Shown in pieces: positions 7,672 through 61,135 of a stretch of DNA of 64,000 nt. Each line of letters starts with the position of its first letter. Position 1 is the stretch's first letter. The stretch covers positions 7,823 to 71,822 of IMG/VR virus record IMGVR_UViG_3300045125_000101. One strand, 5' to 3'. Under the pieces are notes generated by a model, which saw nothing but the letters and a program-made list of their open reading frames with translations, had not been told where the DNA came from and did not search any database. Origin of the DNA: a virus. Both the position numbers and the translations under genes were made by a program.

Positions 7672-8139
7672 TTACCAGCTTGACTGATAAGTAAAATCAA
7701 ACTTCTCAAACTTGGGCGACAGCACCTTATCAAGCACATTGATGGTATGCTCCAAGTCCTTTTTGTACCAACTGTCGATTTCTGTGCTGCCGAAGAAGAA
7801 CCCAGAAGTGGGCGTCAGAATGTCTGATGCACCGTCAGCGTCGCCAGCCTCCAGCTTGACCAAAGCAGCACGGCACTCGTTTCGCAGTTCAGCCAGCTTA
7901 TCACGGCTGACGTAATAGCGGGCGCAGTTGTCCTCGCCGCTCTGGACGTTCTGGACAAACCAGTTGTGGATGGCGTTGGCCTTGCGCCAGTAGCCCACCG
8001 TGACGTTGACCGTCATTGAACGTTCAGCGTCACTTTCGTCGAGGTTAAGAAGGCCAAGGATATTGCCAAAGTCCTTGTCCTTGTCGTGGTCGTAGCCCGA
8101 GACGAAACGCTCGGCGTTGAGAAACATGTCAAGTCCCAT
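7672..8139 (-). CDS. conserved phage hypothetical protein
   Basis: MGLDM...VGYWRKANAIHNWFVQNVQ pattern; intact ORF. Confidence 0.85.
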   Translation of the reverse strand: MGLDMFLNAERFVSGYDHDKDKDFGNILGLLNLDESDAERSMTVNVTVGYWRKANAIHNWFVQNVQSGEDNCARYYVSRDKLAELRNECRAALVKLEAGDADGASDILTPTSGFFFGSTEIDSWYKKDLEHTINVLDKVLSPKFEKFDFTYQSSW

Positions 8140-39552: not shown

Positions 39553-40449
39553 TTAGTCAGCACGAAAACAGTTTGAGGGGTCCAGTGCGAGGATAGTTAG
39601 GAACGCCAAGACCCGTTGTATTCATATACATAAAGGTAATGCTCTTTCCTTCCCAATCCTTCTTGTTCTTTAGACGCTCAACACCCTGTTCATATGTTCG
39701 AGTGAATGTAGCATCAAATACCTTGTCATTCCATTTGATTGCTTGGCGGTCTTGGCAGTATTAGCCCAGTTTTCCGCTGCCCTCAATAAGTTTGACAATG
39801 ACACCTTCATCCGAATTTTCAGGCTTGTATTTCAAAAGAAAACGGCTTCGCTTATTTTTCATATGGCGAATGAGGAATACAGAATAATAGCACCCTCTTC
39901 ACCATCATCAAGATATGTGTTATACACCTTGTCAAGTTCTTCCTGTGAATATACCATAGTATCATTCACTTTGCGATAATACTTGCTGTATTTGGGAAGA
40001 GGTTCATCAATCTGCTTCTTACGAACAGTATACTTGTTACACGGGTCTGTCGCAGGGCCAATATAGTACCCATCGTATACATAGAAACAAACCATCTCTT
40101 CGCTCTTCTTGAGGTCTTCGGAAGAAATGTTCTTTGTCTTGCGAACAAGTTTGACCAATTCATTCAGTTTCTGGCGATAATCATATGAATAGAGTTCTCC
40201 GTCCAAAACAGCCGAGGGGTAATCCTCAAAGAATTTTTCCAAGTCCTTGTTGATATGTGGGACCCTTCTCACATTCCTCTCCTTTTCTGGAAGTCAGTAT
40301 CACATCGCTTTACCATCATATGTAGCGACACAGCGACAGTTATGAACCAATATATTATTGGCGAAAAAGTTGTGATTATCTTCCACTTCCAAATCATATC
40401 TGTCTTCCGAACTGATTTTTGTGATTTTAGTTATTCTTGCAGTTTTCAT
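39553..40449 (-). CDS. lig: split-intein C-half (37 aa) fused to the ATP-dependent DNA ligase C-part (frameshifted)
   Basis: MKTARIT...YDLEVEDNHNFFANNILVHN|CRC; ligase LDGELY, EG.I., KRS..L.K.K motifs. Confidence 0.88.
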
Positions 40450-41339
40450 TTATGATTTTTTTATTTTTTCAAATTTTTTATTTATATCGCATTCCCACAA
40501 TACTACCACTTTATACCCAAAACTTTCAATCTGTTTTTTTCTTGCTTTGTCAAACTTTCTTATGTCCTTGGCCGACATCGGCCCCGAATATCTTTCAATA
40601 ATGTCTGTTGATTTATATATTTTTGGATTAGCGTGCCACTTATCACCATTTATTTCAAATACAAGTTTTTTGTCTTCTATTATGATGTCTGGGTATAGGA
40701 GAATATTCAGTTTGAGTTATTTTGTTGTATTTTTTGAACCTTTGGTCCGAGCATTCACTTTCGTATTTTACTCCTATTTCATCAAGGTATTTTTCTATTT
40801 TTATATGTATTTTACTTCGTCTGCCGGTTTTATTTTTTACATATGACTCAAGAAAACATACATTGGACACCCTATATTTCTAATCATCAGTATCCTTTGA
40901 TATTTTCTTTATCTCGTCAAGTTGAAAAACATTTTTTTACTCCATATTTCTTTTTTACTGTCCTATTTCTTTTTTTATACCAAGTTGAATTTTTACCATT
41001 ACATGATTGACGCCATATTTTTTAGAGTGGTCATTTTTCTTTTTTTCTTTCGATAGAAGATAATGCCGCCCTCTCTTTCAATCTCAACGTTGGTATATTG
41101 TATTCTTTACATAGTGAAAATATATGACTTGCGTCGGTTTTTATATTTTTTGGTTGAAAAATATTTGTACAAATATGATAAATGCTATGATTTTCTTTTA
41201 TAACCAACTCTTCTAGAAAATCTTTAGTCAGTATGCTCCGAATATATTTTCTACGAGTGTGGTTATTAGAATGAAGATTTAGTATATCGTCATTTAGTTT
41301 TGATTTATTGAATATTTCAAGTAGTTGTCCCATATCCAT
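40450..41339 (-). mobile_element. free-standing EDxHD/Vsr-like homing endonuclease between the split-intein halves (frameshifted)
   Basis: PDIII...EINGDKWHANP...GYKVVVLWE.D; stop TAA directly abuts the IntC ATG. Confidence 0.85.
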
Positions 41340-41370
41340 AAATATAAGACAGCCCAAGAAAAATGGAGAA

Positions 41371-42067
41371 TTATTGAATATTTTTTAGCATAACAACATC
41401 GTCGGGAGTCAACTCATCAACACGACGCCAGCACTGTAAACGAGGCAAATACACTTTATGACATCCAGTAAGTTTGATTTTATCTCCAGAAGAAGTTTCA
41501 ACTTCGTACCAAACGACATCGTTTGTTCCGTGATTTTTCATAAAATGAAGAACCTTTTTATATTCTTGTTTTTTGGTTTTGTGTTATAAGACAGCACTTC
41601 GCAGTCAATCTGTTTATTCACAATATCACCGATTGTGATAGGTCCAAGATTAGTTTGTATAATACAATCACTGGCCAAACAGCCATTATACTTGTTCTGA
41701 ACAAGAACTCCTTCATCCCAATCCATCTTGTCTCGGTAATCATCATAGTTCTTGGCAAGCATCAGGTTCAACATAACTGCAGTAGCAAGAGTCAATCTTG
41801 CTTGACGTCAGTTGTATAACCAAGTTTGACCTTCTTGTCCCATTTTGCTTTGTGCCTCACGAAACGGCCTGTTCTATCAGCAGTTGTGGCATTGGCTCGG
41901 CCAACATTCTTGGCCTCACACATAGTCGCGCTCGCTTTGAACTTTCTTGCCATCCTGTCTGGCCCGATATAACACGAAACTTGATTGCGTCAATCTGAAC
42001 AGTCCATTTGCCACGTTTGAACAGCACCAGTAGAAGTACGAGAGAACAATGTCGGGAGGTTTTTCAT
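41371..42067 (-). CDS. lig: ATP-dependent DNA ligase N-part fused to the split-intein N-half (frameshifted)
   Basis: KNVGRAN.TT.EQA, MLAK, QNKYNG|CLASD...LTGCH.V...; ends LKNIQ-stop. Confidence 0.88.
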
Positions 42068-43264
42068 ATTATGCTTATAGCGTGACTGCTTTTTATAGAA
42101 TGTCAAGACAATATCTTGAAGCTCTTAAACACACCATTTTCGTGAACAAGTTCATCCCAGTTACCCATACTATCACGATAGATGATGTAAGCGGTTTGGA
42201 TATCTGTTATTCACTTCCTCCACAACATTTTCGGCATCGTTTGTGACGCTAATGCCACCATCGTCAATATCAATGATATGAACAATCTCGTTAGAGACTT
42301 TATAGATTTCGTAACTCATAATGCTTATACTATGACTACTTTTTATAGAATGTCAATTCCACAACACGCGGATCTCTGCGGATTTTTTTATGAAATGCAA
42401 TACCTTTTACGAGATTTCCATTGTCTAATATTCGCAATTACAACCTCTTGTCCAGCAGGCACTTCTTCTTGTGTGATAATCCCTTTTTCCAAGGAGGTGA
42501 TTTATCCTAAAGGAATCTGGGCGGTAGTAGTAAAAGTTTTCATTTTTAGTTTTAATGTCACCACATTTATAGTGAAATCCATTTTTTTGGATGAATACAT
42601 CAGAATAATCAAACCCAAGTTGTTCAAAAATGATTTTCATAATTCAAGAAGTTTTTGCTATTGAACAATTCTGCACTCAACAGTTCCCATTCAGCATTTT
42701 CTTCAAAGATGAGTTTATCCGCTTCTTCTTCACTATCAACAATCTTGGCATATCTATGCATAAACTCGGTAGTAACAAGATAATTTACACCACGTAGATT
42801 GATATATGTATTCTTGCCATCATTCATAATGGTCGGAACAAAATCTGGATATTGCTTGGCCCAACGAAGGCGAGCTTCAAACATGTCTTTCTCCTACGAG
42901 AAAGCATAGATATTGCCAAAACCTTCTTGAAGGAAGTAGTGCAGTGGGTCTTTCATAATTTAGACGAACACTCTAGCAGTATTTTATAGAAAGTCAAGAA
43001 CTATTCCTTGGGAGAGATAGATAATCTCAAAAGTTCCGCTGACTTTTTCTTGTAACTCCATTTTGGTCAACAAATTGAATAGTGTTTGGACCACGCCAAG
43101 TAATTTTGCCTGTAGTATACATTTCTGGAAATACACCTACAGTTATAACGAACCATAAACTGATGATATCTTTCGTCGTTTGGCTTATCAAGATTGCAAC
43201 CAGACAATAGAATGATAGCAGACAATAGGAGTAATTTTTTCATTTTAAAACAAATCGGCGTTTT

Positions 43265-44087
43265 TTATTTTTAGCTCTTTGTCGGTTCTGGTTTTGGCCA
43301 AGATTGCATATTCTTCACTTATATCGATTCCAATATAATCTCTATTATTTTTTACTGCCATTTTGGTAGTAGTGCCGCTTCCAACGAACGGGTCGAGTAC
43401 AATATCTCCTTCATTAGACCAAGTAAGGATGTGGTCTTCAACAAGTTTTCTGGAAATATTGCAGGATGTGAATGCGCCTCTTTGTCTTTGGTCGCAAATC
43501 CTCCACCAACAACGTATTCCCAGATATTGTTTCTTGGAGAAAACTGAGGAACTGGTTTGATATCATTCACAATTTTAAGGTCATTATTCTTATCTCGTTT
43601 CGTATTTTTTCCCCAATTAGTAACGCCTGCCCATTTGTTTTCTTTGTCGCAAAGAAGCTTGGCGGTCTTGGGTTTTCCTTTTGATAACACAAACATATAC
43701 TCAAATATCTGAGTATATCTGTTACCATCCTTTCTTGCCGGAAAGGACGATGTATTTTCTTATATATCATGGTGTCGTGGAGAAGCAGTCCGCGTCCATA
43801 AACTTCAATGATTGCCTGAAACTATTTCCGGTTTCTCCGCCATCAATGACGGCATCTCCAACAACCCACACAAGTACGCCACCTTTTTTAGTACTCTTAC
43901 TACTTGCGGTACAAGATTGGCCGAAGTCGAACGAGTAACCATTGTATTCGTCTTTAATTCCTACATTTGATTTGTACGAACGAATATCGTCATATGGAGG
44001 AGTAACAATCAAGTCAATCAGCTCATCATCTATTTCCTTCAATATATCTACGTTGTTTCCACAAATAATGTTATTTTTATGTTTCAT
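43265..44087 (-). CDS. beta-class N4C/N6A DNA methyltransferase (frameshifted)
   Basis: PPY catalytic motif near the N-terminus; HPAIFPE; VLDPFVGSGTT SAM motif; YIGIDIS.EY. Confidence 0.9.
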
Positions 44088-44194
44088 TCGGCAAGTATGA
44101 ACCATTCGTTATTTTTGTAAAGTACTGGCTTATCTTGAGATATAAAATTTAATATAGTATCCGCCGACTATCAACTGTCGGCGTTTTTTTTTAA

Positions 44195-44833: not shown

Positions 44834-45138
44834 TGTATTATTATGATAAATTTTTATAAAATGTCAAGACTTAATTCCTGCGACCAATTATCATTCTTTA
44901 ATTGTTCGTCCAGATATTCTTTTTAGTTCTTTGACGTTTTCTTTTTGCTAAGAATAACTTCATCACCATATGGTCTGCCAGTTTAATGACTTGCCAAATA
45001 CATTTTTGACGATAACGCCAAGATGTTTCTGCGATATATCCCCGCTGCCAAAATGAAAACATGCGAGATGTCTTCTTCGTGGTACTTTTTCAAAGTGAAG
45101 TTCGTGAGTATGACACTCGCTAGCAACATGTAGTCTCG

Positions 45139-46008: not shown

Positions 46009-46666
46009 ATGGAAAATGTATCTTGGATAATGGACTCTATCAAAACTGGTGCTCCTGCTCTTGTAGGATTTCTTGTAAAATACTTATGGGATTACTATAC
46101 TGCCAGAAAGCAGTTGAAGCAGGAAAGAATACGCAAACTTGAAGATTTGAAGGCTATGCTTGAAGAAAGCAAAAATCTGTTTGTGATGCAGAACAAACTA
46201 TTGCGTAGATTATGTAATGATGTATGCGAACGTACAAAATGTGAAGCAGAATATAACTCAAACGGCTATGAACATTTTCTTACTCAACTATGATGTTATG
46301 ACTGAAGATGAAAGGGACACTCACTCAGTCATACGTGGCACAACAATGAACAGCATCAATATTGTAAATCAAGAGTTGGAAAAATGGATACAAGAAGACA
46401 AAGAGTTCAAAATCAATAGCGTCAAAGAACTACGCACTATTGATTTTGGAACAAAGTTTGCCAAACAACTAAATCAACTTGAACTACATTTGAATTTGTG
46501 GCGAGACAAGTATAATGTATGGATGAACAACGAAAAGCATTGCGTTGTATATCTTGATGACGAAGAAAGACACGGTGTTGGATTTCCAACTGGCATAGAA
46601 GATATGGTAAATGAAGCTCTTGGACTATTAAGCAATAAACTAAAACAAATATACGTTAGGTGTTAG
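46009..46666 (+). CDS. membrane-anchored hypothetical protein (frameshifted)
   Basis: N-terminal TM, coiled coil, C-terminal LELHL.LW..KY...VYL.DEE.HGVGFP; TATTTATA upstream. Confidence 0.7.
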
Positions 46667-48274: not shown

Positions 48275-48619
48275 TTAGCTCCAGAAAAATCCTCTGTTTT
48301 CTACAATCCAAACCAGCCACTTTGTATCAAGGTCTTCAAGTTCTTTTTCAAGACGATTTACTTCACCATACTTTTCTTCATATGTAGCAGCGTCCTTGAC
48401 TGATGTATGGTTGGTTGGGTATGCTTCTTCAATCTTCTTTTCAAGTTGCTTGCGGTCAAACTTGATATAATCATAGCATTTATTTAGTTCAACTTCAAAC
48501 TTGGCGTGGATTTCACTTGAGTTGGCAAAATCAACGTGCTCAAAGCACTTTTCCTGCTCTACAAAATGCAATACCATCGCAAAGTTTCGTGCGGAATAAG
48601 CCACACTTTGTCTGTCCAA
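48275..48619 (-). CDS. hypothetical protein (may extend upstream)
   Basis: NFAMVLHFVE...WIVENR..FWS. Confidence 0.6.
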   Translation of the reverse strand: MDRQSVAYSARNFAMVLHFVEQEKCFEHVDFANSSEIHAKFEVELNKCYDYIKFDRKQLEKKIEEAYPTNHTSVKDAATYEEKYGEVNRLEKELEDLDTKWLVWIVENRGFFWS

Positions 48620-49013
48620 GTGCGTGGAATATCCTTACTTCTACAATCTTGCTTTGACATACACGACATTCAACATTGTCATAAAACCAACGACCGTTGG
48701 TCATATGCGATACGTGGCAACACTTTGTTTCGGCTAGCAATATTGAACAGGATACTTCTTTTTGAGATATGTATTTACTTCACTATTTTCCAATAGAACT
48801 TCGTGATAATCGCCTGTGTGCGGAATATAATACCAGAAATAAAACATATGCCGCTTGGAATATGGCAATTTCTTATAATCTTCTAGTGTTTCGCAGTATA
48901 GATACTTATAAAGCAAACTATCCGCGCTTTCAAAAAATCTACAATCTTGTCTTTTAGTGTGGGCGTATATTTGCCTTCTGGCATTTTGATTGCCTGTGTT
49001 CGTTGTTCAAAGT

Positions 49014-49870
49014 TCATAAGTCATTTACTCTGTAAGGATTGATAAAGTTGATGTTGCGGTCTTTATTAGACTCTACAAGTTTGTTATAGTTGTATCGTCC
49101 AGATAAATGAGCAGCGTATATATTTTTAGCACGAATATCTTGACAAAAATTATATGCTTCGTCAAGTGTAAAATGTGTAGGGTCGTCTCTATCTTCTGCA
49201 TTCAAGAAGGTGCAATCCATTATAATATCTTTTACATCCATCAAATCCAGTAGTATCGTTGATTTGATAAGCATCAAGAGCAATACGCAAATAGATTAGC
49301 ACGATAACTTTCATTGAGGTCAGCACTCTTCATTCCTTTGCTAATAAGAAAAGGAATGTCTAATCCTTGATACTCTTTTCTCAAGCGAGTACGGTTTTCA
49401 TAAATCACATAACCAAGTGTGCTTTTGTTCTTTTGATGCTGCATATTGAATGCACGCAAAAATTGCTTGTTGCCAAGGTCAAGTTCAAAGCCAGCCTCAA
49501 TAGGCACAAACTTCAAGTCATAACGCAACCAGTTGCCAGCACGAAGCTTGCAGAACTGAATAAGGTCATTCATCAAGTAGTTGTCAGCAGGATAATATAC
49601 CGTAAGAGGTTTGTTATTATCCATTGTATCTGTATTGCAGCTCATACCTCTGCCTGCATTGCGACAGCCAATAATAGATGGCAAGCCAAGAGTATGATCG
49701 CCGTGGTCGTGAGAAATAAAGATTTTATCAATCCCAGCAAGATGATTGCCAATGCTTGTAGCAGCACCTTCGCCGCAATCAAACATTAGACTGCGTGTCT
49801 TATCATAGCACCAGTTGCTATAAAGTGCCTTGCTAAAGAGAAATGTTGAGACCGTTATTCACAATCTCAA
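49014..49870 (-). CDS. rnz: RNase Z-like metallo-beta-lactamase nuclease (frameshifted)
   Basis: FDCGEG, IFISHDHGDH, DCTFL...H......HLS.RY. Confidence 0.75.
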
Positions 49871-49916
49871 CATTGACTAGTTTTTATAGAATGTCAAGAA
49901 GTTATTGTATTAACTT

Positions 49917-60106: not shown

Positions 60107-61135
60107 ATGGGAGTTTCATATGAAAAATATAATAATTATAAATAATAAGATTTTTGCTTGAGTATTGTCGAGGAAAATCTAAAAATGCACCATCGTATAT
60201 ATTTATTGGACGACGGTGAAAAAAATAATTAAAGCCGATATTGCACAATGCGATATAAAAATAAAATGCAATGGAGACGGAAGTTTATATCCAATAAAAT
60301 CAATCACTTCTGCACATTTGAATAAAGAGTATTTTGGATTCAAATGGAGAGGAATTCTACAAAAATCCCTTTAAAGGAAAATCTCACAAAAAATCTTTTA
60401 AAGAAAATCTTAGTTTACAAAGAAAAGGTATATGGGGAATTGGAGAAAAAACCCAAACTTTGGAAAATCAAACTATCAACGTTGGTTAGAAAAATATGGA
60501 AAAAGAAAAAGCCGATGAACTAGAAGCCCAACGAGCATCAAAAATGTCTATCGCAATGTCCGGTAAAAATAATCCATTTTTTGGAAAGACCCACAACGTT
60601 GACACGCAAAACATAATCACGAAAAAAATAAAAAACTGGAGAAATACCCTGTCGGAAGAATATTTGAAATCTCAATCAGAAAAAATATCAAAGTCGCAGA
60701 AAAAATTACAACAAAGTAATCCCGAAGAATATAAAAAAACAAGGCTAGAGGTGGTAAAGCATCAATGTTGGCACAAATGAAAACTTGAAACCCAACAAAA
60801 TAGAGTCTATTGTACAAACCGAACTAAACAAACGAGGACTATCATTCAAATTCGGAATTATATTAGGAAATAAGCAGTTTGATTTTGGAAATAAAAAACA
60901 TAAAATATTAATAGAAGTTCAAGGGGATTATTGGCACGCAAATCCAAAATTATTTGGAAATGGAGAAAATAAACGTCCAATAAATGAAATACAATCCATA
61001 AAAATAGAAAAAGACAAAGAAAAAGTTATTTTCTGTAAAAAGCACGGGTTTATTCTATACGAGATTTGGGAATCTGATATTCTGAACGGAAATTTTGCTG
61101 TGTTAGACGAAATACAGAGTAGCATCAAACACTAA
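60107..61135 (+). mobile_element. NUMOD3 + EDxHD/Vsr-like homing endonuclease (frameshifted)
   Basis: GKNNPFFGKTH repeats; IEVQGDYWHANP...EIWE.D. Confidence 0.85.

Follow-up and report, generated by a model that had tools for sequence, protein, structure and literature searches.

We analysed a window of 64,000 nucleotides (nt), positions 7,823 to 71,822 of the IMG/VR virus record IMGVR_UViG_3300045125_000101, which is a linear record of 138 kb with a completeness estimate of 64%. At 42067 to 39553 on the minus strand, this window carries what we consider, with a probability of roughly 0.88, to be the fractured gene of an ATP-dependent DNA ligase from an uncultured phage, whose active-site motif I is interrupted by a mobile cassette and whose frameshifts in the window are assembly errors. 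The cassette would consist of an N-terminal intein half (IntN), a free-standing EDxHD endonuclease gene, and a C-terminal intein half (IntC), all placed within the codons of motif I. The three genes would be carried on one transcript from an upstream promoter-like motif, the N-half (~226 amino acids [aa]) and the C-half (~296 aa) would be translated separately, and the intein halves would then trans-splice to give a ligase of ~382 aa with K-Y-N-G-C-R at its active site. As the sequence pattern suggests, the endonuclease would cut the intein-free ligase alleles of co-infecting phages, and the whole cassette would be copied in.

Three-frame translation and the list of open reading frames (ORFs) placed all ligase, intein, and endonuclease features on the minus strand, in the order ligase N-extein, IntN, endonuclease gene, IntC, and ligase C-extein. 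The N-extein (41682..42067), which comprises the N-terminal domain and the start of the nucleotidyltransferase domain, starts at ATG 42067, ends ...VQNKYNG with the K-Y-N-G of motif I, and has its homologues in the N-terminal parts of uninterrupted ligases of 380 aa and of N-halves of 226 aa. It is followed by IntN (41371..41681), with the Cys1 codon of the KYNG/CLASD junction (a slash marks the junction here and below) at 41681-41679, the T-G-C-H of block B, and the end ...MLKNIQ before the TAA at 41373-41371. A spacer of 37 nt (41334..41370), holding the 5′ arm and loop of a hairpin, separates the IntN stop from the start of the homing endonuclease gene (40450..41333, coordinates as printed), which has a DUF7487 N-terminal region and a Vsr-like/EDxHD catalytic domain; its ATG at 41333 was assigned from the starts in two related contigs, L002 and L003, by a three-way DNA alignment. 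The endonuclease stop as printed (TAA 40452-40450) is directly followed by ATG 40449-40447 of IntC (40339..40449), which has 37 aa and the C terminus ...NNILVHN. The C-extein (39553..40338) begins with the Cys+1 codon at 40338-40336, continues with R-C-V-A-T, contains the remainder of the adenylation domain together with the OB domain, and ends with TAA 39555-39553. Translation, the ORF list, and Pfam thus found each feature where an earlier, sequence-only reading of this DNA had placed it; that reading, while right in its anatomy, had passed silently through frame breaks in every gene, and its IntN of about 102 aa has 103 aa in intact relatives.

The window frame of IntC and ligase, read through two TGA codons (P0001), was then searched against the protein collection. 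This search returned 84 C-half clusters, the best of which (P0002) was 74% identical overall and had an IntC identical to that of the window. The contigs of P0002, L002 (18.3 kb, ENA) and L003 (6.9 kb, JGI), are independent of the window and carried the same three genes, all intact. In L003, these encode an N-half of 226 aa (N-extein plus the 103-aa IntN), an endonuclease of 301 aa with the Pfam domain DUF7487, and a C-half of 296 aa (IntC plus C-extein). The intact three-gene loci of L002 and L003 bear out the proposal that the ligase is fractured, with separate intein halves.

Several observations weigh against this reading. None of the three proteins is encoded by the window copy as printed, in which no gene is open. 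The similarity of the endonuclease to its proposed relatives is weak and not significant by sequence only (Vsr, E 0.05-0.16; PDB 3r3p, E 0.32), and its structural match to Vsr and 3r3p rests on a predicted model. Moreover, the hairpin at the endonuclease start codon is modest (z about -2), with none in a further related locus, L006.

The condition of the window copy was examined by three-frame translation, which detected a change of frame every 50-250 bases in ligase, IntN, endonuclease, and C-extein. Compared with three or four intact alleles, the 2.5-kb locus has about 22 frame-breaking insertion or deletion (indel) events, all private to the window. Seven of these fall in the cassette when compared with L003, mostly within A- or C-runs, and about 15 in the exteins when compared with three intact alleles (~8 in the N-extein and ~7 in the C-extein). 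IntN is broken by a 1-nt deletion (A5 to A4) in an A-run at ~41581, and six private indel events spread the endonuclease reading frame over at least three frames. An alternative genetic code was considered as the cause of the broken frames and rejected, as every break is an indel when compared with relatives whose frames are open under table 11. Three L003 genes that are intact there (85, 211, and 240 aa) have homologues in the window that extend over two or three frames, for example at 44893-45133, 46021-46633, and 48278-49017. At 43245-44105 (minus strand), three consecutive ORF pieces resemble by eye one frameshifted DNA methyltransferase (P-P-Y; a ...G-I-D-I-S-E-E-Y... tail); scanned separately, these pieces had no Pfam match at E<=0.01.

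Such a density of indels could also mean that the locus is a real pseudogene in the phage of the window, with ligase, intein, and endonuclease all dead relics, and homing endonuclease genes do decay after fixation. However, the genes on both sides are broken alike: flanking genes whose L003 homologues are intact occupy two or three frames here, the longest ORF in the whole window has 467 aa, stop-free frames of at least 250 aa number only about eight, and a phage genome made up entirely of pseudogenes is implausible. Many of the indels lie in homopolymers. In addition, a 7-nt insertion in the N-extein (42004-41998, minus strand) joins an L003-like W-Q-M to an L002-like W-T-V-Q-I-D; it reads as a join of two allele types and so suggests that several strains were mixed in the consensus of this record. 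When the indels were set aside, IntN and the endonuclease had ratios of nonsynonymous to synonymous substitution rates (dN/dS) against L003 of 0.07 and 0.06, IntC had a ratio of 0, and the exteins had ratios of 0.09-0.18. Such strong purifying selection in all parts makes a pseudogene specific to this locus unlikely, and we regard decay in the phage itself as improbable. Judged from these comparisons, the frameshifts of the window copy are in all probability assembly errors rather than biology, and given this poor sequence quality an ORF-level reading of the IMG/VR record requires an intact relative as a guide.

To the fractured ligase gene itself, Pfam assigned PF01068 (DNA_ligase_A_M) in the C-extein, with E values of 5.7e-10 for the window fragment and 7e-18 for the intact P0002. 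The OB domain PF14743 matched P0002 at 7e-4, which is under the curated cut-off, and matched the C-part of another relative, P0122, at 1.2e-12. A search with the intact N-half retrieved N-halves of 217-250 aa together with many uninterrupted ligases of ~380 aa. Intein-free alleles read K-Y-N-G-V/A-R-C-V-A-T, whereas intein-bearing alleles read K-Y-N-G, intein, C-R-C-V-A-T. This comparison places the intein right after the G of K-x-(D/N)-G-x-R, with Cys+1 taking the place of the x that follows, a position at which Cys was found in none of 98 intein-free relatives. The best solved relative of an intein-free allele was PDB 6IMJ (E 7e-15), whose K-R-N-G-V-R aligned with K-Y-N-G-V-R, indicating that ligases of this type normally have N in place of D in motif I. 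The insertion within the active-site motif, as first proposed, is therefore upheld by the intein-free alleles and the 6IMJ alignment, and the motif I lysine would be the residue that is adenylated.

Deposited phages were searched as well. The locus had no blastn match among them, the N-terminal fragment of the endonuclease had no tblastn match, and tblastn of the ligase gave only matches of ~30-36% that begin after IntC. The tblastn matches of IntN in deposited phages were inteins of other genes, such as UvsW, NrdA, and PhoH, and tblastn found no deposited phage with this intein in its ligase in the INPHARED collection. A related-locus search of IMG/VR with a 137-aa ligase fragment returned no relative. 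Twenty sequencing runs, mostly labelled as lake water, contained just ~0.11 of the sampled words and so give no evidence of habitat or strain.

The intein halves were identified by Pfam and by their splicing residues. Intein_splicing matched the window fragments of IntN at 4e-5 and of IntC at 2.4e-8, and matched residues 138-222 of an intact N-half (P0086) at 1.3e-9; on raw window fragments, the intein and DUF559 matches were sub-threshold, and intact relatives were needed. In nucleotide sequence, IntN is 95.8% identical to that of L003. Cys1 stands directly after the N-extein (KYNG/C-L-A-S-D) in the window, L002, and L003, as well as in 21 N-half clusters; the T-x-x-H of block B is present as L-T-G-C-H-K-V in the window and P0086; and the C-terminal H-N is followed by Cys+1 (...LVHN/C-R-C) in the window, where the amino acids of IntC are those of P0002. 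A stop after IntN and a start before IntC, and hence separate products, were found in the window, L002, L003, L005, L006, and the P0015 contig. These intact splicing residues and the purifying selection on both halves are consistent with halves that associate and trans-splice.

Among PDB sequences, IntN matched the DnaE, NrdJ-1, and DnaX inteins and IntC matched the C-terminal blocks of the DnaX, NrdJ-1, and gp41-1 inteins. The similarity to these solved DnaE, NrdJ-1, gp41-1, and DnaX inteins is distant; in the comparison with known split inteins that had been suggested earlier, gp41-1, NrdJ-1, and cyanobacterial DnaE matched at E 1e-4 to 1e-5. Presenting the halves as a new pair, in turn, was an overstatement, since public assemblies already hold N-halves 97% identical to that of L003 and an IntC identical to that of the window. 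Fast splicing by this ligase pair would be pure conjecture. No characterised split intein of a ligase came up in the literature search, and a study of large aquatic phages (PMC12619734) does not mention inteins. In two other proteins, P0082 and P0085, IntC halves 64-69% identical to the present one precede RNA-ligase-type proteins (PF09414, 2e-23) with the junction ...VHN/C-T, indicating that related split inteins also invaded another nucleotidyltransferase gene.

Fractured genes can also function without splicing, an example being nrdA of phage Aeh1, which is fractured but has no intein (PMC2677866 and PMC3045599 cite it), and the ligase halves might likewise work while merely held together non-covalently by the intein halves. 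This is hard to reconcile with the presence and conservation of Cys1, T-x-x-H, the terminal H-N, and Cys+1, the last of which is confined to intein-bearing alleles. An unspliced intein, moreover, would separate the motif I lysine from the arginine inside the active site. We therefore consider a ligase that dispenses with splicing highly improbable, and favour trans-splicing of the two halves.

The junctions between the three genes were further inspected in the three-way DNA alignment. The window, L002, and L003 do not differ in the context of the IntN stop or its A6 run, and in the two contigs IntN and the endonuclease lie in different frames, 37 nt apart. A lone homopolymer error able to fuse IntN with the endonuclease is excluded by this identity in two intact contigs. 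At the other end of the endonuclease gene, L002 and L003 read A8 where the window reads A7 (40456-40462). With A8, the endonuclease would stop at 40429-40427, 23 nt into the IntC gene and in a different frame. The abutment of the endonuclease TAA on the IntC ATG, which had been noticed earlier, is thus correct as printed, whereas the genes overlap by 23 nt in the intact relatives, and most likely it is a homopolymer miscount in the window.

From the window alone, a split intein and a contiguous intein with errors could not be distinguished. A contiguous intein with the endonuclease domain nested in it, the splitting stops being sequencing errors, would suit a window full of indels, in which A6 to A5 just before the IntN stop would bring IntN in frame with the endonuclease, and the related P0122 lineage, which has the endonuclease in frame with IntC, but we give this next to no credence in view of the identical A6 and TAA in two independent intact contigs, the differing frames and 37-nt spacer, the L002 and L003 endonucleases that end out of the frame of IntC, the dozens of separate N-half and C-half ORFs, and the endonuclease relatives that are stand-alone proteins of ~300 aa. 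One continuous ORF, the outcome that the sequence-only reading had named as its own refutation, is contradicted by the IntN stop and frame change in L002 and L003, and polishing of the window would not be expected to yield it.

The mobility of the cassette in the fractured ligase gene was assessed by comparing it with its host gene. Between the window and L003, nucleotide identity is 95-98% in the cassette (IntN, endonuclease, and IntC) versus 70-77% in the exteins, and the corresponding synonymous divergences (dS) are 0.10-0.25 and 0.93-2.36. The stretch of high identity begins ~20 nt before the cassette and stops ~25 nt past it. A cassette far less diverged than the exteins, with short flanks of high identity, is the pattern expected of recent homing with short co-conversion tracts. 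In addition, the window exteins are nearer to those of the intein-free L013 (78%) than to those of the intein-bearing L003 (73%), and L002 and L003, which differ by 26% in the N-extein, show no difference from the start of the cassette on. Taken as they stand, these sequence comparisons indicate that the cassette arrived later than the ligase gene that hosts it, and point to recent homing.

The same arrangement recurs in related loci. An N-half gene, a separate DUF7487 gene, and an IntC-ligase gene were found in five of them (L002, L003, L005, L006, and the P0015 contig), and in intact relatives the endonuclease and IntC genes overlap by 23-62 nt. All six loci inspected share the order, the endonuclease being fused to IntC in the sixth (P0122). 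Among the C-half clusters, 66 of the 84 begin with an IntC of 34-48 aa ending xHN/C-R, and 21 N-half clusters end with K-x-(D or N)-G followed by the Cys of an IntN of 100-128 aa. The insertion site is thus common to no fewer than 66 C-half and 21 N-half clusters.

The fused form, P0122, from a sister lineage, is a protein of 596 aa (L015:2501-4291, L016:2501-4291, and L017:1027-2817) in which the endonuclease is in frame with IntC and the ligase C-half, directly after an N-half of 222 aa. It was seen in five contigs, of which three, from separate assemblies, were examined; these also carry a release-factor gene (PCRF/RF-1). P0122 may represent a stage between fractured genes and inteins in which the endonuclease is nested. 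Other selfish elements were observed as well: a convergent GIY-YIG gene follows the intein-free ligase allele of L014 (L014:1328-1999, minus strand), and the PhoH gene of L005 has LAGLIDADG/Hom_end matches (L005:8668-8840), which indicates a classical intein. The phages of L014 and L005 are thus rich in selfish nuclease elements.

A broader proposal is that the motif I site preserves several live stages in the evolution of intein and endonuclease among co-occurring uncultured phages, namely the empty site, the homing three-gene fractured form, and the fusion of endonuclease with IntC, together with an uncharacterised, possibly fast and orthogonal G/C-R pair. This we advance tentatively and on balance doubt. 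If it were true, how split inteins and nested endonuclease domains arose would become directly testable.

The family of the endonuclease was examined in its relatives. A full HMMER scan returned 6,521 representative relatives, 997 of them at E<=1e-10. Most of the 150 best relatives listed are ~300 aa long and aligned end to end, which marks them as stand-alone proteins. When 50 relatives were aligned, D215 and H233 did not vary, E226, D261, and W279 occurred in at least 90%, and the D of E-I-Y-G-D-x-W-H was a consensus residue. By pairwise alignment, the conserved residues correspond to D51, H69, and D97 of Vsr, and the frames of the window read P-D-I-I-I-E-D, F-E-I-N-G-D-K-W-H, and F-D-K-A-R.

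An AlphaFold (AF2) model was predicted with a confidence (pLDDT) of 94.8, and the top two PDB folds that Foldseek matched to it were Vsr (1cw0) and the homing endonuclease I-Bth0305I (3r3p), both with probability 1.00; for the predicted model, the TM-score against the 3r3p catalytic domain was 0.76 by target. The N-terminal two-thirds are helical with three K-Y-G-V-x-N repeats (DUF7487), and this region presumably binds DNA. By the definition given in PMC3239194, we accept the protein as a predicted EDxHD/Vsr-like homing endonuclease. The conserved residues and the top folds of the model accordingly speak for the EDxHD endonuclease that had been proposed to lie between the halves. Elsewhere in the window, a 125-aa ORF at 60758-61132 on the plus strand resembles the endonuclease catalytic domain (37% over residues 221-289, E 8e-6; DUF559, 0.0018) and may be another nuclease or the remnant of a homing endonuclease gene.

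Candidate expression signals were found around and within the locus. The promoter-like motif CTTGACATTCTATAAAAA lies at 42090..42107 on the minus strand, ~23 nt upstream of the ligase start. The motif CTTGACWTTCTATAAAAA occurs in 18 copies in the window versus 0.35 expected, almost all of them on the minus strand, with sites at, for example, 2455-2472, 42090-42107, 42340-42357, and 49881-49898. It precedes many minus-strand genes, is conserved in L002, L003, and L004, and is kept upstream of the ligase in L002 and L003. From its distribution, it is probably a promoter of early or middle phage genes. The copy at 42090..42107 is the sole one as far as the ligase stop, with none inside the locus, and the three genes are thus probably cotranscribed.

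At the start of the endonuclease gene, the 3′ arm (41337-41327) of an 11-bp hairpin contains the AUG, and in L005 a hairpin of unrelated sequence lies over the same AUG position (z -3.9). The hairpin may dampen translation of the endonuclease. In addition, the C-half and the endonuclease may be translationally coupled, since the C-half begins either within the endonuclease gene or at its end.

As read here, the locus would represent a clear further case of an essential phage replication and repair enzyme that relies on trans-splicing, with a selfish cassette in its active-site motif. Set beside its intact relatives, the locus makes the mobility of the cassette visible, as alleles exist with and without it and it is near-identical where the ligase genes differ by ~25-30%. 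With dozens of clusters, the uncharacterised family of ligase split inteins is a large one and could add orthogonal pairs to the protein-engineering toolbox.

The fractured arrangement has been described by Dassa et al. 2009 (Dassa, London, Stoddard, Schueler-Furman, and Pietrokovski; PMC2677866) at 26 loci for eight enzyme types, including DNA ligase. The match to these loci that the sequence-only reading had proposed was confirmed by the same gene order on one strand: a host N-part with IntN, a free-standing endonuclease gene, and IntC with the host C-part. In 15 of their loci the endonuclease gene runs at its 3′ end into the IntC gene, with overlaps of 6-69 bp, compared with 23-62 nt in the intact relatives here; their IntN halves have 88-105 aa and their IntC halves 33-54 aa, compared with 103 and 37 aa. 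Half of their loci have a Vsr-like endonuclease, the loci are likewise of phage origin, and hairpins lie upstream of the endonuclease genes, a feature for which the likeness here is weak. Their ligase is a single Lake Gatun locus, described as Felix 01-like, with a 5′-3′ exonuclease gene downstream; judged from this description, the neighbourhood resembles L005 rather than the window. As ligase is already listed among the fractured hosts, this kind of locus is known, and its novelty had been overstated.

The individual parts were likewise compared with characterised proteins. The ligase resembles 6IMJ (419 aa), one of the viral or phage ATP-dependent ligases with an extra N-terminal domain, in its N-terminal, adenylation, and OB domains and in K-x-N-G-x-R; identity is just ~25-30%, however, and the solved enzyme has no intein. 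The endonuclease shares with I-Bth0305I, the EDxHD prototype (PDB 3R3P; PMC3239194), an N-terminal DNA-binding region, a C-terminal Vsr-fold nuclease, and the conserved E, D, H, and D, whereas I-Bth0305I sits in a group I intron of recA and has NUMOD-2 motifs in place of the DUF7487 repeats and the position between intein halves found here. The intein pair, finally, has the class 1 HINT signature and the split point of gp41-1, NrdJ-1, and cyanobacterial DnaE (PDB 6QAZ, 8UBS, and 1ZD7), as well as an IntC of ~35-40 aa that ends in HN with Cys+1. It differs from these inteins in the distance of the sequence match, in its host gene, and in its G/C-R junction.

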